This document shows, one piece after another, positions 2,721-13,716 of a stretch of DNA of 13,716 nt; position 1 is the first letter of the stretch, and every line of letters begins with the position of its first letter. The translations under genes and the position numbers were made by a program. Source of the DNA: a virus (taxonomy: Duplodnaviria; Heunggongvirae; Uroviricota; Caudoviricetes); IMG/VR virus record IMGVR_UViG_2778261086_000003, positions 1-13,716 of that record. One strand, given 5' to 3'. The notes below the pieces were generated by a model, which saw only the letters and a list, made by a program, of their open reading frames with translations, searched no databases and was not told where the DNA came from.

Positions 2721-3046
2721 ACAGCTCCCCGTTTATTATTTATCTCCTCAGCCAGCCGCTGTGCTTTCAGGGGATTTCGGGTAACAGAAAGGCCGGGAAA
2801 TACCCAGCCTCGCTTTGTAACGGAGTAGACGAAAGTGATCGCGCCTATGAAACCAAGGACCTGGTTGATGTCGTAACCGGCGAAATCACTACTATCCAGT
2901 CGTTACGCCATACCTCCGATCTTGATACCGGAGAGATGTATGTCTTCCTGTGTAAGGTTGAAGCCTGGGCGATGAATATTGGCTGCCACCTGACTATTCC
3001 ACAGAGCTGCGAGTTTCAGCTGCTGCGCGACAAGCAGGAGGCGTAA
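2672..3046 (+). CDS. hypothetical protein, possibly the 3' remnant of a nin-region gene
   Basis: Reading frame ends at a TAA (3044-3046) that overlaps the ninE ATG. It has no convincing ATG with a ribosome-binding site, and its 5' end overlaps the divergent 63-aa gene. May be a truncated remnant left by a deletion. Confidence 0.3.
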   Translation: MPSQCSFLTQQEMLCAYSSPFIIYLLSQPLCFQGISGNRKAGKYPASLCNGVDESDRAYETKDLVDVVTGEITTIQSLRHTSDLDTGEMYVFLCKVEAWAMNIGCHLTIPQSCEFQLLRDKQEA

Positions 3047-3216: not shown

Positions 3217-3499
3217 TTTGAGAAAAGCAGCGCGTGGTCGGGAATGCCAGGTAAGAATCCCTGGCGTATGTAATGGCAACCCTGAAACGTCTGTACTGGC
3301 ACATATCCGGCTGACTGGATTGTGCGGCACCGGTACGAAACCGCCAGACCTGATTGCCACCATTGCATGTTCTGCCTGCCACGACGAAATCGACCGCCGC
3401 ACGCATTTTGTTGACGCTGGATATGCAAAAGAATGCGCGCTGGAAGGTATGGCGAGAACACAGGTTATCTGGCTGAAAGAGGGGGTTATTAAGGCGTGA
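3209..3499 (+). CDS. ybcO: YbcO-family nin-region protein (putative Zn-binding nuclease, 96 aa)
   Basis: [37 protein letters not shown]... with GGAGG at 3201-3205. Conserved Cys/His pattern. Sits in the ninE-ybcO-rusA order seen in DLP12-type prophages. Confidence 0.85.
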
Positions 3500-3858
3500 A
3501 TACCTACAGCATCACATTACCCTGGCCTCCGAGCAATAATCGCTATTACCGCCATAATCGCGGGCGCACGCACGTCAGCGCAGAGGGGCAGGCATACCGC
3601 GATAACGTCGCCCGAATCATTAAAAACGCAATGCTGGATATCGGCCTGGCTATGCCTGTGAAAATCCGCATTGAGTGCCACATGCCGGATCGCCGTCGCC
3701 GTGACCTGGATAATCTGCAAAAAGCCGCTTTTGACGCACTCACTAAAGCAGGTTTCTGGCTGGATGATGCTCAGGTCGTTGATTACCGCGTTGTGAAGAT
3801 GCCTGTTACCAAAGGTGGGAGGCTGGAACTGACCATCACCGAAATGGGGAATGAATGA
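3496..3858 (+). CDS. rusA: RusA Holliday-junction resolvase (120 aa)
   Basis: GTG start overlapping the ybcO stop (GTGA). Sequence [28 protein letters not shown]...[10 protein letters not shown] is recognisable as RusA. Confidence 0.9.
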
Positions 3859-4613: not shown

Positions 4614-5138
4614 TTATTGTTTAACCCATAATAATTCATTGACATTGAATCCCAACTTTTGAGCGGTTCGCACATAGTCTGCTTTTACTTTATCTGGAAT
4701 AGTTGGGGTCCTTGCCAGAATCCATAGGTATTCTCTGTTCGGACCACTGACAAGAGCATACTTATACTCATCATCCAGTTTGATTACATTATAGCCACCA
4801 TAGAAGGGGCCAAAAAACGAAACCTTCAATGCTGCAGTTTTAGTATCTCCAGTAAAGTATGCTTTACCTTCGCTCTCGCTCCATTTATTTTTCGTTGGAT
4901 CGTATCCACGGTTAAGTACACGAATCCCTCCGTCGTTCCGTTTTCCATAAGTAGCGCTGACCTGTTCCAGATCACGTTCGAACCGGTTCTCGAGGCGAGC
5001 TATTTCATACCATTTTCCGAGGTAGCGGTTGGCGTCAAAATTTGTAATCGGCTGCACACCTTTAGGTGGTGTCGGGGCCTTACATGCTATAAGAGTGAAA
5101 GAGAGTGCAATGCCAGTCAACACAGGCCATAACTTCAT
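4614..5138 (-). CDS. Blc-family bacterial lipocalin, outer-membrane lipoprotein (174 aa)
   Basis: Signal peptide with lipobox (LIAC), then lipocalin signatures (NFDANRYLGKWYEIARLENRFE...YLWILARTP). Homologous to but distinct from chromosomal Blc. Lower GC than flanking phage genes and antisense to late transcription. Confidence 0.85.
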   Translation of the reverse strand: MKLWPVLTGIALSFTLIACKAPTPPKGVQPITNFDANRYLGKWYEIARLENRFERDLEQVSATYGKRNDGGIRVLNRGYDPTKNKWSESEGKAYFTGDTKTAALKVSFFGPFYGGYNVIKLDDEYKYALVSGPNREYLWILARTPTIPDKVKADYVRTAQKLGFNVNELLWVKQ

Positions 5139-5330
5139 AATAAATCCTGTACTTTTGATAGTTGAGAGTAAGTATGAAAGATAGATGATTACGACCGATC
5201 ACTTAAAGAACTTTCATACTATATTAGGAATAGTCCATAACAGAAAAATTGTCAGTGATGACGCCAGAAAGGCAATTTATTCCGTGCACTACACAGTTTA
5301 TGTGTTAATGAATTAGTCAAGGGGGAGAAT

Positions 5331-6290
5331 ATGATAAAAAAACCTGTGATTGGAATCAGCGGTTGTTTGGCCGGTTCTGCTGTTCGTTTTGATGGTGGTC
5401 ACAAAAGAGCTGACTTTTTAATGGACAAATTAGTGGAATGGGTAACATTCAGACCAGTATGTCCGGAAATGGCTATAGGGCTGCCAGTTCCGCGTCCTGC
5501 TCTACGTCTTGTGCGCTCGACGCAAGGAAATATACGGATGTGTTTCAGCCACGACCAGAATGAGGATGTGACAGAGAGAATGACAGAGTTTAGTCGTTCT
5601 TATATGGACAAATTAAAGGATGTATCGGGGTTTGTGGTTTGTGCTAAATCTCCCAGCTGTGGCATGGAGCGCGTGCGTGTCTATGATGAAAATGGTAATC
5701 GAGGTCGTAAAGATGGAGTGGGACTATTTACGAGTACTTTGATGGAAAAGTTTTCCTGGCTACCGGTTGAAGAGGATGGGCGATTACATGATCCAGTGCT
5801 TCGTGAGAATTTTGTTGAAAGAGTTTTTGCTTTGCATGAGCTCAATCACCTTTACAAGGAGAAATTATCAAGAAGAGAGTTATTAGCTTTTCATAGTCGT
5901 TATAAGCTTCAGTTGTTGGCGCATAGTCAGGCAGGCTATAAAGATATGGGACCATTTGTGGCTGCAATACACGAGTGGGCGGACCTTGAATCATACTTTG
6001 AGGTGTATCGTGATAATCTGATGGCGATTCTCAGAAAACCAGCATCACGTAAAAATCACACGAATGTGCTGATGCATATACAGGGGTATTTTAGTAATTA
6101 CTTAAGTACACGCCAGCGTAAAGAGTTGAGCGAGGTTATACTTAACTATCGCTTTGGCACATTGCCTCTTCTTGCGCCGTTGACTCTGCTGAAGCATTAT
6201 CTGGGTGAGTATCCTAATGATTACTTGCTTACACAGAATTACTTCGATCCCTATCCGGACGAACTGGCTCTAAGACTGATGGTAAATTAA
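5331..6290 (+). CDS. DUF523-DUF1722 fusion protein (RudS/TudS-like putative thionucleoside desulfidase, 319 aa)
   Basis: N-terminus has the DUF523-type Cys pattern (GISGCLAG, PVCPE, CAKSPSCGM), consistent with a [4Fe-4S] TudS-like fold. The C-terminal ~150 aa resemble the DUF1722 (YbgA-like) domain. GGAG 4 nt before the ATG. Domain call from memory, not HMM-verified. Confidence 0.65.
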   Translation: MIKKPVIGISGCLAGSAVRFDGGHKRADFLMDKLVEWVTFRPVCPEMAIGLPVPRPALRLVRSTQGNIRMCFSHDQNEDVTERMTEFSRSYMDKLKDVSGFVVCAKSPSCGMERVRVYDENGNRGRKDGVGLFTSTLMEKFSWLPVEEDGRLHDPVLRENFVERVFALHELNHLYKEKLSRRELLAFHSRYKLQLLAHSQAGYKDMGPFVAAIHEWADLESYFEVYRDNLMAILRKPASRKNHTNVLMHIQGYFSNYLSTRQRKELSEVILNYRFGTLPLLAPLTLLKHYLGEYPNDYLLTQNYFDPYPDELALRLMVN

Positions 6291-6641
6291 TTGTATGCGA
6301 TATCATCCAAAAGGATGAGTTCCTGCATGCAGGATATTTACAATCGTAAAAACTACACTATGATACCCAGAGTGTCAGTTTGTATAAAAACTCTGTTTAC
6401 GCTGAAGAAACAATTGAGATGCAACTTAAAGTTGGTAAACATGCCAGTCAAAATATATAATATTATGATTCCACGCAGCTATATATAATATAACAGATTG
6501 GTTTAATAATTTGTCTTTGTGAGTTAAATACATAATTTTATACTTGTGATGCAATGAAATTTTCCTTATTGTTGAACTGGCGAATATTGATTTTCCACCT
6601 ATACTTACCTGGTGTAACCCCAATGATATCAGGTGGATAAT

Positions 6642-7373
6642 ATGCCATACATATGTTCTATCATTTTGGTGTTGAACTCGTTTGATGTCCGAATTGGTAA
6701 AGAAGATATTTTGTTTAAAAAAGGAAGTGCTGTTCTCATTGATTACAATTTAAAAGATTTTTTTTCATCAAATATAGATCATGTAATGATCGTAGATGTT
6801 GAAGAGAAAACAGTTAATGATTTCTTTAAAAGCAACACACTCTCACCTTTTTCTGTAAGAAGGTTTTATCCGGCATACTTGATGGTGGAATGTGAAGATT
6901 TTTCATTGTTAAAGAACTTGATTGCATGCTTGAATTGTGATGGCAGAACTGTGGATTTTGTTAGAAATCAAATATCACTTGCATGTCTTGCTATCTTATC
7001 TTCAGAGAAAATAGTGCAAAGTTTTTTATTTGGATGTCTTAATAGTTTAGGAAGTAAAGTTAAGGCTATTATTCACACGGATATATCTGCAGCATGGAGA
7101 CTTTGTGATATATCTTCAAGACTGTATCTGAGTGAAAGTCTGTTAAAAAGAAAATTAAAGCACGAAGGCTTATCATTTAGTAAGTTAATTCTTGAAGAGC
7201 GAATGGTGATGGCGGAAAGGTTATTAAGCTACAATTTATATTCTGTTGGAAAAGTTGCTGAGATATGCGGTTATGAAAACACGTCATATTTTGTAAGTGT
7301 TTTCAGAAGATATTTTGGTGTTCCTCCCCATCAATATTCATCAAGATTTTTTTTAGAAAAAGACATGATGTAA
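6642..7373 (+). CDS. AraC/XylS-family transcriptional regulator (243 aa)
   Basis: C-terminal AraC-type HTH region (LLKRKLKHEGLSFSKLILEERMVMAERLL...VGKVAEICGYENTSYFVSVFRRYFGVPPHQY). ATG at 6642 with AGGTGG 5 nt upstream; the ORF-track start at 6633 is a GTG extension. Very AT-rich gene and leader. Confidence 0.75.
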   Translation: MPYICSIILVLNSFDVRIGKEDILFKKGSAVLIDYNLKDFFSSNIDHVMIVDVEEKTVNDFFKSNTLSPFSVRRFYPAYLMVECEDFSLLKNLIACLNCDGRTVDFVRNQISLACLAILSSEKIVQSFLFGCLNSLGSKVKAIIHTDISAAWRLCDISSRLYLSESLLKRKLKHEGLSFSKLILEERMVMAERLLSYNLYSVGKVAEICGYENTSYFVSVFRRYFGVPPHQYSSRFFLEKDMM

Positions 7374-8274: not shown

Positions 8275-8503
8275 GTAGAGTAACCGCGATTATGGTTCGA
8301 AATGGGATGTTATCCGTGAACGTGTGCTCAAGCGTGACAAAGGACTGTGTCAGTTATGTCTGCGTGGTGGTGTGGTGCGTGAGGCGAAAACCGTTGACCA
8401 CATCATCCCTAAAGCACATGGCGGCACTGATGCCGACAGCAATCTGCAGAGCCTGTGCTGGCCGTGTCATAAGGCGAAGACGGCCCGTGAACGGCTGAAG
8501 TAA
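8271..8503 (+). pseudogene. Rz (spanin) start fused to the 3' fragment of an HNH endonuclease gene
   Basis: ATG at 8271 encodes MSRVTAI, identical to the first seven residues of lambda-type Rz, then diverges. A different frame (from ~8279, after an in-frame TAG at 8276-8278, to TAA 8501-8503) encodes SNRDYGSKWDVIRERVLKRDKGLCQLC...DHIIPKAHGGTDADSNLQSLCWPCHKAKTARERLK, an HNH C-terminus with no start codon. Confidence 0.6.
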
Positions 8504-8628: not shown

Positions 8629-9123
8629 ATGGCTGGAACGGCGGGGCGTTCCGGGCGTCGCCCCAAGCCAACGGCGCGCAAGGCGCTGGCCGGAAACCCC
8701 GGCAAGCGAGCCCTGAACAAAGATGAACCTGTTTTTACGCCCATCAAAGGTGTTGAGCCACCGGAGTGGTTCGCTGAAGAAGATCTCCCTCTCGCCACGA
8801 TCATGTGGCAACTGACAACCAAAGAACTCTGCGGTCAGGGCCTGCTGTGCGTGACTGACCTCGCGGTGCTTGAGCGGTGGTGCGTGGCCTATGAGTTCTG
8901 GCGACGTGCCGTGAAAAATATTGCCAGACAGGGCAACACCATCACCGGTGCAATGGGCGGCATGGTCAAAAATCCGGAGCTGACCGCCAAAAAAGAACAG
9001 GAGTCCGAGATGAGCAGCACGGGGGCAATGCTCGGACTCGACCCCAGCAGCCGTCAGCGTCTGATTGGCCTGGCGGGGCAGAAGAAAACCACTAACCCGT
9101 TTCTGAAAATCATCGAATCATGA
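8629..9123 (+). CDS. terminase small subunit (P27/HK97 gp1-like, 164 aa)
   Basis: ATG at 8629 with AGGAG 9 nt upstream; the ORF-track start at 8620 is a GTG extension. Basic N-terminus ([27 protein letters not shown]). Stop overlaps the large terminase ATG (ATGA). Confidence 0.8.
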
Positions 9124-9938
9124 GCCGGAAATCTTACCCCAACGTAAATGCTGCCAATCAGTATGCCCGGGATGTCGTGCGCGGAAAGATTGTGGCCTGC
9201 CAGTTTGTGATTCAGGCCTGCCAGCGCCATCTTGATGACCTGATGGAGGAAAAAAGTAAGTCGTTTCGTTACCGCTTCGACAAGGACCTGGCTGAACGGG
9301 CCGCGAAATTTATTCAGCTGTTGCCGCACACCAAGGGTGAGTGGGCATTTAAGAGGATGCCCATCACGCTGGAGCCGTGGCAGCTCTTTGTGATCTGCTG
9401 CGCGTTTGGCTGGGTCAATAAAGGCTCCCGGCTGCGCCGCTTCTGTGAGGTGTATACCGAAATCCCCCGTAAGAACGGCAAATCGGCAATCTCTGCCGGT
9501 GTCGCCCTGTATTGTTTTGCCTGTGATAACGAGTTTGGCGCGGAAGTGTATTCCGGTGCCACGACAGAGAAACAGGCGTGGGAAGTCTTTCGCCCGGCGC
9601 GACTGATGTGTAAACGCACACCCATGCTGACGGAAGCGTTCGGGATTGAGGTTAACGCCTCAAACATGAACCGTCCGGAGGATGGCGCGCGGTTTGAACC
9701 GCTGATCGGCAACCCCGGTGATGGTTCATCACCCCACTGTGCGGTGGTGGATGAATATCACGAGCACGCCACCGATGCGCTTTATACCACGATGCTTACC
9801 GGGATGGGGGCGCGACGTCAGCCACTGATGTGGGCCATCACCACCGCCGGGTACAACATTGAGGGGCCGTGCTACGACAAGCGGCGGGAAGTTATCGAGA
9901 TGCTCAACGGTTCGGTATCAAATCGGATGGCACGGTGA
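9120..9938 (+). pseudogene. terminase large subunit, 3'-truncated (N-terminal ATPase domain only, 272 codons)
   Basis: Walker A motif (EIPRKNGKS) and ATPase-domain sequence present. The reading frame stops after ...EMLNGSV, whereas intact large terminases are roughly twice this length. Downstream sequence switches to unrelated glycine-rich coding. Confidence 0.8.
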
Positions 9939-10600
9939 AAACGGCTCTCGAAAACCTTGGTTTGGGAGATGGCTCGGGGCGTTACAGCAAAACTGTCGTT
10001 TTTTCATCGTCGGGTTCATATACGTGGCCAGCTGACGTAAAACGAATTGACGTTATTCTGACTGCGGGGGGCGGCGGTGGCGGTGGATGTAACGCGGAGA
10101 ACGCAAATCAGACATTTTCAGGGGCTGGCGGAGGAGCCGGAGGTACTGTTTTTGCCACTATTTATGCGACAGACAACGATGCCGGGCCAGGGACCTATAC
10201 AGTGACAATTGGCAGCGGTGGTAGTGGTGCCAATGGGCCAGGGTCTGGAAATAATGGCGGTAATAGTTCGTTCATGACATTAACTGCGCTCGGCGGCCAG
10301 GGTGGGCAATGGGGCGGCGCTACAAATACCGCTGGCGGGCGCGGTGGCTCAGGCTCTGGCGGTTATAAAACTGAACAAGGCGGAGACGGTTCAGACGGAC
10401 AGGCGGGCCAGGCGCTATTAGTAGGCAATGGGGCATCGAGCTATTGGGGTGGCGGCGGCCGCGCTGGGCAACTGAGCGGTAATCCTGGAGTTTGCTCTGG
10501 CTCCGGCGGCGGGGGTGCATACGATAATAGCTATTCACACACGTCAGGACGTGGCGGGCACGGAGCTAATGGCGTGCTGGTAATTCGGGAGTTCATGTAA
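9869..10600 (+). CDS. glycine-rich tail-fibre C-terminal fragment (5' end missing; real start unknown)
   Basis: ORF of 243 codons overlapping the truncated terminase. Sequence ...[26 protein letters not shown]... followed by long GGxGG/GSG runs is characteristic of glycine-rich domains of phage tail fibres. Immediately followed by a tail fibre assembly gene. The first ~15 codons are probably terminase DNA read out of frame. Confidence 0.5.
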
Positions 10601-11005
10601 ATGAATGATATCTATGCAGTTGTTGATAATAACGTTGTTATTAATGTCATTATCTGGGACGGAATTTCTGAATGGAAACCAGAGGCTGGTAATTTAGTTC
10701 CGTTAAACGGCGATGCTGGCATCGGTTGGTCATATTCAGACGGAGTATTTACCGCGCCACCTCCCCCAGAACGCTCTCACAACGCGTTAGTTGCGGAGGC
10801 TGAGCTGCAGAAATCAGCACTACTGACCGTAGCAAATAACACAATAGCACCGCTGCAGGATGCCGTTGATTTGGAAATGGCGACAGACGATGAACAGGCG
10901 TTAATGCTGGCGTGGAAAAAATACAGGGTACTGCTGAACCGTGTTGATACCTCAGCGGCACCCGAAATAGAGTGGCCTACGCAACCGGGGGAGCGGGCCA
11001 GTTGA
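10601..11005 (+). CDS. tail fibre assembly protein (Tfa, 134 aa)
   Basis: C-terminus ...[48 protein letters not shown] matches the conserved Tfa chaperone C-terminal domain. Start is immediately after the upstream stop (TAAATG). Confidence 0.8.
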
Positions 11006-11129
11006 TATCAGGCGCAGCGTCAGCATCAACTGCTGTCACTGCGTCGATGTAGTCGAGTACCGCATTCAGCCGCGTTTTTTCATCATCAGTCAGTTTGCGG
11101 CCTGCACTTCTCCGTTGACATCTTTGTTA
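10977..11129 (-). pseudogene. decayed fragment of a second, convergent tail fibre assembly gene
   Basis: Minus-strand translation gives ...[38 protein letters not shown], sharing the TDDE...VD..AP.I.WP pattern of Tfa C-termini. No start codon in frame; upstream frames contain stops and a frameshift. Its 3' end overlaps the plus-strand tfa by about 28 bp. Confidence 0.4.
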
Positions 11130-11293: not shown

Positions 11294-12415
11294 TTAAGAT
11301 ATTCTTTTAGCTATAGAATGACCTATATTTATAAACGGTTTTTCTATTACGTTATATATCAAGTAAGATAGGCTTATAGAAATTATGAGCGATGATATAT
11401 AAATGGCAAACGATCTATGTTCAGTGCTAATACCAATACTGGAACCGTAAAACTCAATAAACTGTATAACAGGAACATGAATCAGATAAAGTGAATATGA
11501 TATTCCACCAAGAGCAACAAGTGATTTATTGAATGAAATAACTTTATTATTTTCTAGAATAATAACACACAAAACAATCAGAAATGCAATATATGCAGAT
11601 CGCGTCAAACCATGTCCTTCAGACACCCCATTAAGCCAAAAAACAAACATCATTCCTAGAATGAAAACGCATAAACTATTTATAATAGAATTATTCATTC
11701 TTTTATGCCTAAGTAAAGGCATTGTCTCTGATATAATCATCCCTAAAATGAAATCATATACTATAGGATTGCCTATGAATCCTATATGAGAAAACACCCC
11801 TGTTTTTGCAATATTGAATGATTGGGCGTCAATTACTACCGAGTGGTTAAAGTAAAGAGAAATAATTGTACTTACAGCAACTAGAAAACATGATGTGATT
11901 AATACCCTGTATTTTATGCTTAATGACATGGATATTGCGAAAATAAAATAAAAATATATCTCGTACCCAAGTGACCATGAAACAATTAGCGTTCCCCACC
12001 CATAATATGGCGGTAGAGTTGAGACATCTAAAGGGATGAGAAGAAATGATTTTATAATATTATTTATAGAAAAAACACCACCCCATGATACGCCTGTGTA
12101 AATATTGTGGTAAAAAAGAAAAACATAAACGCTTAATACTATTGCGTAAACAGGATAAATTCTAAAAAATCTCTTTACAAGAAATGAGGCGGTATTTCTT
12201 AAAGATGTTTTTGTAAAGTTTTTAGTTGAGTATGATATTATAAATCCGCTTATTATAAAAAACAATTCAACTCCAAATATAGCATTCGCGGTTATCCTGT
12301 CCATGAAAGAACCAGGATCTACTTGCCCGAAAAGACCTCTATTATGACCAATAGCTACAGCAAGAGCTGCAATTCCACGAAGCGCTTCTATTCCGTATAA
12401 TTTATCTGTTTTCAT
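11294..12415 (-). CDS. acyltransferase-3 family integral membrane O-acyltransferase (Oac/OafA-like, ~373 aa)
   Basis: Multi-pass hydrophobic protein with the N-terminal acyltransferase-3 signature (LYGIEALRGIAALAVAIGH). Start placed at ATG 12415; the ORF-track start at 12418 is a TTG. Very AT-rich and adjacent to the integrase, as for O-antigen acetylase genes of Shigella phages. Confidence 0.85.
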   Translation of the reverse strand: MKTDKLYGIEALRGIAALAVAIGHNRGLFGQVDPGSFMDRITANAIFGVELFFIISGFIISYSTKNFTKTSLRNTASFLVKRFFRIYPVYAIVLSVYVFLFYHNIYTGVSWGGVFSINNIIKSFLLIPLDVSTLPPYYGWGTLIVSWSLGYEIYFYFIFAISMSLSIKYRVLITSCFLVAVSTIISLYFNHSVVIDAQSFNIAKTGVFSHIGFIGNPIVYDFILGMIISETMPLLRHKRMNNSIINSLCVFILGMMFVFWLNGVSEGHGLTRSAYIAFLIVLCVIILENNKVISFNKSLVALGGISYSLYLIHVPVIQFIEFYGSSIGISTEHRSFAIYISSLIISISLSYLIYNVIEKPFINIGHSIAKRIS

Positions 12416-12558: not shown

Positions 12559-13716
12559 CTATGATACCTTCTCCTCAATCCAATCCGCCCACCACTGCAT
12601 CATTTCTCTGCGCTTATCGAGATACTGAGCATGGTTGTAAATCCCGCGCACAGATCCGCCGTTGGCATGTGCCAGTTGCACTTCAATAGCATCAGCAGGC
12701 CATTCGTGCTCGTTCATAATCGTGCTGAATTCATGCCTGAATCCGTGACCGCTTTCCAGACCTTCATAGCCGATTTGTTTGATCACAAGCAGTACAGCGT
12801 TCTCGCAAATTGGCTTCTTCTTATCGTTGCGCCCGGCAAAAACAAACTCTGATACTGGTTTGGTGATTGAACTTAGCGTAGTGAGAAGTTCAACTACCTG
12901 GTCTGACATAGGAACCACATGAATCTTGCGTCCCTTCATCACACTGGCCTCGATGGTGATAATCCTGTTTTCAAAATCGACGTTCTTCCATTGCATGGAA
13001 CGAAGCTCTTTTGTTCTTAGTGCTGTGTAGCGTAAAACTTTGGTCGCAATGAGAGATACGATACTTCCTGAAAATGTTGCAAGTGCTTTGTTGAATGCCG
13101 GGATCTGGTCGGCAGGTAAAAACGGGAAGTTCTTCTTGCGGTATCCTTTCATGGCGTCTGCAAGGTCAGGTGCCGGGTTATATTTAGCCCTTCCGGTGAC
13201 AATAGCGTAACGAAAAACCTCGCCGCATCTTCTGCGGGCTTTGTTGGCTCGCTCCATTGCACCGCGATCTTCAAATCTTCGGATTACTTCCAGCAGTTGC
13301 ATCGGCTCAATATCCTGAATTTCAAGACCGCCGATGATGGGTAAAATGTCGTCATCAAACATTTTGGCAAGTTCAGTTGCATAGCCTACTGACCAGACTT
13401 GCTTCTTGTGCTCGTACCATTCCTTGTAAATCGCACTAAATGAATTGTTGTTAGACGAAGCCTTTTTCGCCTTTACCGGATCGATGCCAACCGAGATGTC
13501 TTTCCTCGCAGTCCATGCCTTATCCCTTGCTTCCTGCAAAGTCATAAGCGGATATTTTCCGACAGTCAGGATTTTCTCCTTACCGTCAATCTTGTAGCGA
13601 AGCTGCCATACCTTTTTCCCTGATACAGGGACATAAAGGTACAGGCCATTACCATCGAGTAGGCGGTATGGTTTTTCTTTCGGCTTTGCTGCTTCAATCT
13701 GCTTAACGGTGAGCAT
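12559..13716 (-). CDS. tyrosine-type site-specific integrase (P4/CPS-53 IntS-like, 385 aa)
   Basis: Full ORF whose ATG is the last three bases of the window. C-terminal catalytic signature (HGFRHEF ... LAHANGGSVRGIYNHAQY). N-terminus MLTVKQIEAAKPKEKPYRLLDGNGLYLYVPV is typical of tRNA-associated P4-family integrases. Attachment site would lie beyond the window. Confidence 0.9.
   Translation of the reverse strand: MLTVKQIEAAKPKEKPYRLLDGNGLYLYVPVSGKKVWQLRYKIDGKEKILTVGKYPLMTLQEARDKAWTARKDISVGIDPVKAKKASSNNNSFSAIYKEWYEHKKQVWSVGYATELAKMFDDDILPIIGGLEIQDIEPMQLLEVIRRFEDRGAMERANKARRRCGEVFRYAIVTGRAKYNPAPDLADAMKGYRKKNFPFLPADQIPAFNKALATFSGSIVSLIATKVLRYTALRTKELRSMQWKNVDFENRIITIEASVMKGRKIHVVPMSDQVVELLTTLSSITKPVSEFVFAGRNDKKKPICENAVLLVIKQIGYEGLESGHGFRHEFSTIMNEHEWPADAIEVQLAHANGGSVRGIYNHAQYLDKRREMMQWWADWIEEKVS

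Follow-up and report, generated by a model that had tools for sequence, protein, structure and literature searches.

The stretch of DNA analysed here (13,716 nucleotides (nt); hereafter the window) is a tailed-phage record, IMGVR_UViG_2778261086_000003 of IMG/VR, and holds a cryptic SfV-like prophage in which the large terminase gene, terL, runs directly into the 3' part of a side tail fibre gene. With a probability that we put at roughly 0.9 from sequence comparison, this junction, J3, would be the scar left at argW when a prophage of the temperate SfV-like family, which has HK97-type heads and Mu/e14-type tails, underwent one internal deletion, whose left end fell at a recurrent deletion hotspot within terL. 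The scar itself is ordinary for a defective prophage, being of the kind found in CPS-53, e14 and DLP12; what is surprising is the reuse, precise to the nucleotide, of the terL breakpoint and of the left breakpoint of another junction of the element, J1, across many independent remnants.

Three-way alignments of the window against intact parents (records L002, L001 and L004, of which L002 is the prophage of Escherichia coli Yu5 and L004 that of E. coli 042) gave the following features around the junction:

9120..9938, plus strand: truncated large terminase TerL', 272 amino acids (aa), with terL codons 1-266 at 9120-9917
9916..9917, no strand: deletion junction J3
9918..10600, plus strand: remaining 3' portion of the side tail fibre gene; of the 310 codons for an StfP-N/Gly_rich_2 fibre, whose intact gene lies at L004 19756-20688, it has 84-310

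At the joined points the terL parent reads ...CGGTTCGGTA|CCCAAC and the fibre parent ...TTTGGYGATA|TCAAATCGG; set out as ...CAACGGTTCGGTA|CCCAACGATG for terL and ...CCGTTTGGYGATA|TCAAATCGGATGG for the fibre gene, the two combine in the window as ...CAACGGTTCGGTA|TCAAATCGGATGG. The last base that belongs to terL only is 9915 and the first that belongs to the fibre gene only is 9918, leaving the dinucleotide TA (9916-9917) as the sole sequence shared, and terL ends after nt 798 (codon 266; GTA, Val) with the fibre gene resuming directly at codon 84. In BLAST comparisons with the intact Yu5 prophage the terL homology extends to 9917 and the fibre homology begins at 9916, the latter also being where prophage tail-fibre homology starts for a query taken from 9880. 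Across complete E. coli genomes and phage records, the identity of the window to terS and terL nt 1-798 of the SfV group (SfV, SfII, SfI, SfIV and the 042 and Yu5 prophages) is 97.6-99.9%, and it stops at 9917 in every match. No insertion sequence and no tandem or direct repeat was found at J3, where the two ends have 2 bp in common in place of the short direct repeat of a slippage deletion. The sequence-only reading had proposed a deletion junction here, with about 266 terminase residues followed at once by tail-fibre-like glycine-rich sequence, and had advised aligning the region to intact terminase and fibre genes and looking for direct repeats; these alignments bear the proposal out, with the break at 9916-9917 and TA as the only repeat. 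A full-length terL hidden by a frameshift, which that reading had named as the contrary case, was rejected, the sequence past 9917 being 99-100% identical to the fibre gene.

The terL open reading frame (ORF) begins at 9120 and that of the fibre gene at 9869, a difference in frame of 2 nt that makes J3 a junction at the level of DNA, with no fusion protein: TerL' stops seven codons after codon 266. The description of the deletion as fusing terL to the fibre gene thus stands for the DNA and falls for the protein. The tail of TerL' consists of six out-of-frame fibre-derived residues, SNRMAR (nt 9918-9935), followed by the stop TGA at 9936-9938. Residues 1-266 are 99-100% identical to the 577-aa full-length TerL of SfV-like prophages, and in TerL' Pfam detects the TerL_ATPase domain in full, at residues 86-256, and not the TerL_nuclease domain, which occupies residues 268-558 of the intact protein. 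The exact 272-aa protein occurs in one isolate only (GCA_002486895.1, contig NNXC01000009.1). Directly upstream lies the small subunit gene:

8629..9123, plus strand: small terminase subunit (P27 family), intact; Pfam Terminase_4 E 2e-21; also a gene call in L003

This gene is 98-99% identical in nucleotide sequence to those of SfV, SfII and E. coli prophages, and terS and terL together show 97.6-98.3% identity over 1,317 nt to SfV, SfII, SfI and SfIV. The succession of a P27-family small terminase and an HK97-type large terminase is that of the SfV-like phages.

Between 9917 and 9918 the entire morphogenesis block of these phages is absent, so that the element is a remnant of the SfV family and not a functional member of it. 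The distance between the joined points is 16,195 bp in E. coli 042 and 16,569 bp in Yu5, both of which retain the block of about 20 head, neck, tail and baseplate genes. Lost from the head side are ymfR and the genes for the portal, prohead protease, major capsid, connector and closure proteins and tail terminator; from the tail side, those for DUF2635, sheath, tube, chaperone, tape measure and the DNA-circularisation protein; and from the baseplate and fibre region, baseplate genes P, V, GP46 and J, YmfQ and fibre codons 1-83. The supposition that the genes from portal to fibre N-terminus are missing is therefore correct, and the gap, put earlier at 15-20 kb, comes to 16.2-16.6 kb in the intact relatives. 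In the RefSeq annotation of Yu5 the tail fibre gene (L002 37638-38402) is labelled 'integrase', an evident misannotation.

The frame 9869..10600 holds a complete Gly_rich_2 domain (Pfam E 2e-19), and the fibre 3' part is 99-100% identical in nucleotide sequence to E. coli prophages. The fibre is of the e14 StfP/Mu type with a glycine-rich domain; this refines the sequence-only reading, which called it tail-fibre-like and proposed lambdoid tail fibre genes for the comparison, in that the fibre is not of the lambda type. The fragment is devoid of the StfP-like N-terminus and of the native start codon, the candidate starts being a GTG at 9935 (gene call) and a TTG at 9962 (the PGAP annotation pipeline). 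This GTG overlaps the TerL' stop as GTGA (9935-9938) and has GGATGG 5 nt upstream. Judging from this arrangement, translational coupling at the GTGA could give a 221-aa glycine-rich protein, and expression of the fibre fragment is possible. In translation, the intact fibre gene of E. coli 042 is one uninterrupted 310-codon ORF. RefSeq/PGAP splits this ORF (L004 19756-20688; L001 19753-20685) into a 'StfP pseudogene, missing C-terminus' and a 'glycine-rich domain-containing protein', the latter beginning at an internal TTG of the 310-codon ORF in both records.

The left break of J3 is not peculiar to the window. We found the same break in terL, GGTA^CC (window 9912-9920, terL nt 794-802), in 11 or more junctions that were verified at the DNA level and whose right partners differ (the window, L005, L006, L007/8, L017-L022 and L269/270), of which these were placed as follows:

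L005 10310..10325: hotspot junction
L006 10310..10325: hotspot junction
L007 775..797, minus strand: hotspot junction
L269 1000..1025: hotspot junction
L270 9312..9337: hotspot junction

Two closed genomes, L005 and L006, carry a truncated terL beside other tail genes, with junctions ...TCGGTA|TCCGCC (to gp46) and ...TCGGTA|TCTGGGG (to ymfQ), respectively. Pattern scans of IMG/VR added ...TCGGTA|TCCGGAG, which enters the 3' end of ymfQ, and ...TCGGTA|TGTTTC, which enters the circularisation gene. A protein search with TerL' drew in dozens of TerL N-terminal fusions, and the contigs examined for six of these broke at the same bond, joining gp46 (ACGGTA|AGG), gpP (TGGTAC|T), baseplate J (CATTA|ATCC), fibre codon 5 (GTATA|GAC) and, twice, the sheath gene, in one case with no shared base. 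The hotspot junctions lie on different terL alleles (GGTTCGG versus GGGTCGG; GTTATC versus GTCATC), which places them in independent lineages. Among about 55 distinct TerL truncation or fusion events, counted from all retrieved proteins at least 95% identical to E. coli TerL in what appears to be a length-limited survey (see below), 20 break after residue 266, 3 after residue 267 and 1 after residue 265. Such truncations are rare in that the terL region is intact over at least 80% of a 600-nt query (300 nt to either side of the site) in 1,386 of the 1,405 complete-genome records that have it. Full-text literature searches for a described terL deletion hotspot returned nothing relevant.

Codon 266 of intact terL is commonly either GTA or GTG, and the TA shared at the junctions may stem from either parent. 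The GTG allele (L004 3795-3812) makes a perfect EcoKI recognition sequence, AAC GGCTCG GTGC, and the GTA allele, which the window has, makes none. A candidate for the same hotspot in a Salmonella homologue (P0033) was rejected, its true break being near residue 234. In one of the closed genomes, that of strain PCP06173, a second copy of HNH-terS-terL-ymfR-portal' lies inverted behind the terL'^gp46' remnant (L005 12058-15957), the outcome of a rearrangement between two SfV-like elements.

Secondary recurrent left sites occur elsewhere in terL, at residues 178/179 (five events), 198-201 (four) and 527 (two):

L002 21054..21057: codon 178/179
L002 21114..21123: codons 198-201
L002 22098..22104: codon 527

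The right-hand partners are likewise reused: the ymfQ site GCGTA|TC with terL266 and terL527, the sheath GGTGACC region with terL172, terL210 and terL266, and the baseplate-J site ATTA|CCC with terL227 and terL527; the circularisation-gene site GGGTA|TG is also among the reused partners. An O-gene site, GGGTAACC, is joined to two terL hot sites, codon 201 in e14 of K-12 and codon 268 in a related prophage, both of which use this same O-gene site (CAGGGTAACC). Of 17 partner sites, 14 have TA directly 5' of the join, against 587 of 17,084 positions (3.4%) region-wide; the bases after the join are enriched for YC, and the unique sites give a weak, near-palindromic pattern G-R-T-A|Y-C, with GATATC used three times against 11 copies among the 587 TA positions. 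These partner-motif statistics were drawn up post hoc, and microhomology to the end of terL confounds them in part. Both fixed left sites, terL nt 798 and that of J1, read TA^CCC; we rejected TACCC as a sufficient signal, only 1 of its 18 copies in the region being hot. Pseudo-cos cleavage by the terminase was also rejected, the similarity of the hotspot to the cos region being at chance (289 of 300 shuffles scored at least as high).

From the nucleotide-precise recurrence of GGTA^CC we infer, as in every statement made here on the cause of the hotspot, that a sequence-directed break or strand exchange starts these deletions. It would act first, at terL nt 798, and a partner site carrying TA would be joined to it afterwards. 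At J3 the joining would have been illegitimate and of the RecA-independent type, linking terL nt 798 to fibre codon 84 through the 2 bp TA; it would have removed 16.2-16.6 kb and left an ATPase-only TerL fragment followed by a start-less fibre C-terminus.

Some observations weigh against this account or limit it. It is built on sequence comparison, and the loss of function of TerL' and of the fibre fragment is presumed from their domain content. The protein survey seems to be capped at proteins about 1.75 times as long as the query and merges short-tailed truncations, for which reason the ratio of 20 in 55 comes from a biased sample; this bias does not favour residue 266 over residues 267 to about 450. 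In addition, some of the hotspot junctions could be serial deletions that reused an earlier junction instead of independent hits.

Among the alternatives for how J3 arose, the one that fares best, which we consider a serious though minority possibility, is that a dedicated sequence-directed enzyme made it and not undirected microhomology joining. The candidates are subunit exchange by a type II topoisomerase (gyrase), a serine-recombinase-like crossover at a 2-bp TA between quasi-sites, and RusA cutting branched DNA 5' of CC. An enzyme of this kind would account for a left end that is fixed to the nucleotide while its partners are many, for the use of the same partner sites with other left sites, for the near-palindromic G-R-T-A|Y-C of the unique sites and the overuse of GATATC, and for the right-hand four bases, which always come from the right parent as a staggered exchange predicts. 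The limits of the motif statistics given above tell against it, as do the use of some sites in two registers and the junctions that lack TA (L021, L022, P0003 and P0054); the serine-recombinase form has TA as the would-be crossover dinucleotide in both J3 parents and in 14 of the 17 partner sites, though not in all junctions. Moreover, the terL site is unlike the pix/cix consensus, matching 5 of 20 pix positions by manual comparison, and the window encodes no recombinase other than IntS. The Pin/Din invertase acting at its own site was rejected, as the pix site lies 27 nt to the right of the join and has TT at its centre, with the terL site unlike it. RusA would fit the reading TA^CCC of both fixed left sites, and rusA is present in the window at 3496-3858, but only one in 18 TACCC sites being hot speaks against it. 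In its favour, RusA prefers to cleave 5' of CC; against it, RusA leaves plain duplex DNA uncut and acts on branched DNA only (PMC1636454). More tentative still is the wider proposition that GGTA^CC is the strongest of a set of G-R-T-A|Y-C-like sites in SfV-, e14-, CPS-53- and DLP12-type prophages that a specific phage or host enzyme cuts or exchanges, making the decay of such prophages into cryptic remnants, that of e14 in K-12 included, directed and repeatable in place of random.

Replication template switching, by which synthesis halts at a DNA secondary structure and the nascent 3' end primes again further downstream, paired over 1-5 complementary nt, appears rather unlikely as the source of the hotspot. 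It draws support from the two hairpin-linked secondary sites, both unusually stable: terL179 lies at the loop/stem boundary of the hairpin TTGAGGT-TAAC-GCCTCAA (z -2.8) and terL198-201 at the 5' foot of GGTGATG-GTT-CATCACC (z -2.5). The partners also share TA, GTA, GGTA or CGGTA with the fixed 3' end, and in a distant homologue TerL is split at this very codon by the loss of 1 nt, read here as slippage, from the neighbouring CCC run. At the main hotspot, by contrast, neither strand forms a significant hairpin (z -0.5 and -0.1), and the partners offering longer matches (29 CGGTA and 7 GGTACC sites) are not preferred over those with TA only. Slippage, furthermore, does not usually produce deletions 0.5-17 kb long from 2 nt of homology. 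The distant homologue (L023 4790-4810; 83% aa identity) comes from a metagenome contig, in which the C-run at codon 266/267 is shortened from GTCCCG to GTCCG; the loss divides TerL into separate ATPase and nuclease ORFs, and could be a sequencing error or slippage.

That the ATPase-only TerL and a coupled glycine-rich domain are expressed as a domesticated module and kept by selection, for example against the packaging or adsorption of related phages, strikes us as improbable. The cut falls exactly at the boundary of the ATPase and nuclease domains, independent truncations share the same residue, a possible GTG start, with GGATGG before it, overlaps the stop of TerL', and the upstream Q, holin and endolysin genes are intact, all of which such a module might display. 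Against it, the recurrence is precise to the nucleotide while the tails are arbitrary, both in-frame and out-of-frame, which argues for a mutational bias and not for selection on the protein; other recurrent breaks, at residues 179 and 198-201, fall inside the ATPase domain. J3 shows no sign of retention, being private to one isolate. Weakest is the suggestion of an assembly artefact, a chimeric short-read contig linking parts of one or two SfV-like prophages, which we hold to be very improbable: the assembly is a draft whose contig begins 82 nt left of the window and no complete genome carries J3, but De Bruijn mis-joins require a shared k-mer where J3 shares TA alone, the same protein is present in both the NCBI and the Logan assemblies, the contig extends more than 150 kb into normal chromosome, and closed genomes from unrelated laboratories (L005 and L006) have the identical left breakpoint.

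The preferred reading, an internal deletion from the terL hotspot in a prophage at argW, agrees with the location and content of the element. The window corresponds to positions 83-13798 of the contig, which ends 82 nt to its left and on the other side continues into the chromosome. To the right of intS follow tRNA-Arg(CCT) (argW), yfdC, mlaA and fadL. With host genes on the right and the contig end on the left, structural genes just outside the window, the other contrary case named in the sequence-only reading, were rejected. The attachment site is argW/intS, as used by CPS-53 (KplE1), and the comparison with CPS-53 made in the sequence-only reading is thereby stronger than could be known at the time. 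The right-hand end of the element is made up as follows:

11294..12415, minus strand: acyltransferase family 3 gene, a cargo gene of the O-antigen-modification type (Pfam Acyl_transf_3 on the L003 gene call; L001 annotation)
12559..13716, minus strand: integrase IntS, with argW and yfdC just outside the window

The placement of intS beside cargo and fibre genes is the normal layout of SfV-like prophages, as in Yu5. The element is thus tRNA-adjacent with a terminal integrase and, by comparison with Yu5, has lost essential lytic functions through J3 and two other internal deletions, J1 and J2, making J3 one of three. It retains Q, cargo genes, holin, endolysin, terS, TerL', the fibre fragment, the tail fibre assembly gene, the acyltransferase and intS, the Q, holin and endolysin genes lying upstream of the terminase. 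In the interval 4614-7373, between the Q antiterminator and the holin, there are three cargo-like genes, for a lipocalin (minus strand), a YbgA-like 2-thiouracil desulfurase/DUF1722 protein and an AraC-type regulator, which have 99% identity to those of the intact Yu5 prophage.

The other two junctions are:

2846..2847, no strand: junction J1, DUF1317 gene (minus strand) joined to ybcN (plus strand), TA shared
8285..8293, no strand: junction J2, at an imperfect 9-bp repeat CGCG[A/G]TTAT

Compared with Yu5, about 9.1 kb is missing at J1: the genes exo, bet, gam, kil and ren, those for the repressor, a cro-like protein and replication, and the 5' part of ybcN. DLP12 variants of three closed E. 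coli genomes (L028 3095-3135) have exactly the left breakpoint of J1, ...GATCGCGCCTA|, and a right breakpoint in ybcN that is 32 nt further upstream than that of J1; the shared left end means either that a site was reused or that a second deletion ended flush against an earlier one. J2 lies between the imperfect repeats CGCGATTAT and CGCGGTTAT and has cost 1,353 bp relative to Yu5. Gone are the greater part of Rz, DUF6979, a small hypothetical ORF and 132 nt from the start of the HNH endonuclease gene, of which an out-of-frame C-terminal fragment survives at 8294-8503. HNH proteins are the partners of such terminases in cos cutting. On the preferred reading, two further deletions would have taken the immunity, replication and recombination region and the stretch reaching from Rz into the 5' part of HNH, and the three together would leave a cryptic prophage unable to replicate, to cut cos or to build particles. 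J1, J2 and J3 are each absent from all 5,426 complete E. coli genomes, which makes the element a strain-private, triply deleted cryptic prophage. Junction scans of species-representative genomes returned chance 20-mer matches in Pseudomonas only, and those of metagenomes returned no match.

Downstream of J3 the element also preserves traces of a fibre switch:

9946..9969, no strand: pix-type crossover site of a Din invertase, now an orphan, TCTCGAAAACC TT GGTTTGGGAGA, where the constant part of the fibre gene meets the variable part
10601..11005, plus strand: tail fibre assembly protein, intact; Pfam Caudo_TAP E 3e-32
10977..11105, minus strand: what is left of an inverted second tail-fibre-assembly gene; L001 and L004 have a PGAP pseudogene at the corresponding place

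Switches of the Din family (Pin, Gin, Cin) consist of two inverted 26-bp crossover sites and an invertase gene. The window has one pix-type site, with no inverted copy between 9850 and 11350 and no invertase or resolvase gene anywhere in it; lacking both the partner site and pin, the fibre switch is dead. A complete invertible switch is present in L006, where the same 18-nt pix motif forms the inverted repeat flanking a 1.8-kb invertible segment beside pinE. The inverted tail-fibre-assembly remnant, whose coordinates were carried over through a 99.4% alignment, is a leftover of a former invertible segment.

Several known elements bear comparison with the window. CPS-53 of K-12 occupies the same argW site, belongs to the same SfV-like phage family, has intS at the prophage end by O-antigen-modification and tail-fibre-assembly genes, and has likewise lost its morphogenesis genes. 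The window differs from CPS-53 in keeping Q, holin, endolysin, terS, terL' and the fibre C-terminus and in having the acyltransferase in place of gtrABS; its three junctions are also absent from the complete E. coli genomes including K-12. In strain PCP06173, a remnant with the CPS-53 genes yfdR, yfdQ and yfdP has a terL' cut at the same nucleotide as the window. The e14 element of K-12 shares with the family of the window the terminase type, the StfP-type fibre, the YmfQ/baseplate genes and the pix/Pin invertible fibre system, and was likewise built by internal deletions that cut terL, its O'^terL junction at codon 201 being at a recurrent site. It keeps the 3' part of terL, where the window keeps the 5' part, it sits at another locus, and it retains pinE, which the window does not. 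The intact SfV-group elements have the same gene order as the window, with 99% identity over the fibre 3' part and the tail fibre assembly gene in E. coli 042, and hold the morphogenesis block, the HNH gene and the early region, all three of which the window is without. DLP12, a defective lambdoid remnant, keeps a ybcN-ninE-ybcO-rusA-ylcG-Q block like that of the window, and its variants in the three complete genomes mentioned above have the DUF1317'^ybcN' junction with the left breakpoint of J1; however, it lies at another site (argU/intD), its right breakpoint is 32 nt off, and it has no part in the terL/fibre junction. The illegitimate-recombination hotspots of lambda, known from gyrase- or short-homology-dependent lambda bio transducing phages, also give recurrent, precise junctions with 0-5 bp of homology. 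They were defined experimentally and join phage to host DNA, whereas the events described here occurred in nature, between points of a single prophage, and cluster at one position in terL, so that we liken the terL hotspot to them by analogy only.

For annotators, the 272-aa 'terminase' and the 'glycine-rich domain protein' are to be read as fragments, and the argW element as one that would make no particles; the adjoining acyltransferase is the likely reason why the host still gains from it. If it is true that in many E. coli lineages independent deletions start at the same terL phosphodiester bond and reuse their partners, then the inactivation of prophages would be partly deterministic. Such a finding would have consequences for models of how prophages become domesticated, for the origin of e14 and other K-12 remnants, and for the long-standing search for the catalyst behind RecA-independent illegitimate recombination in bacteria, for which it would provide a defined 6-bp site for genetics.

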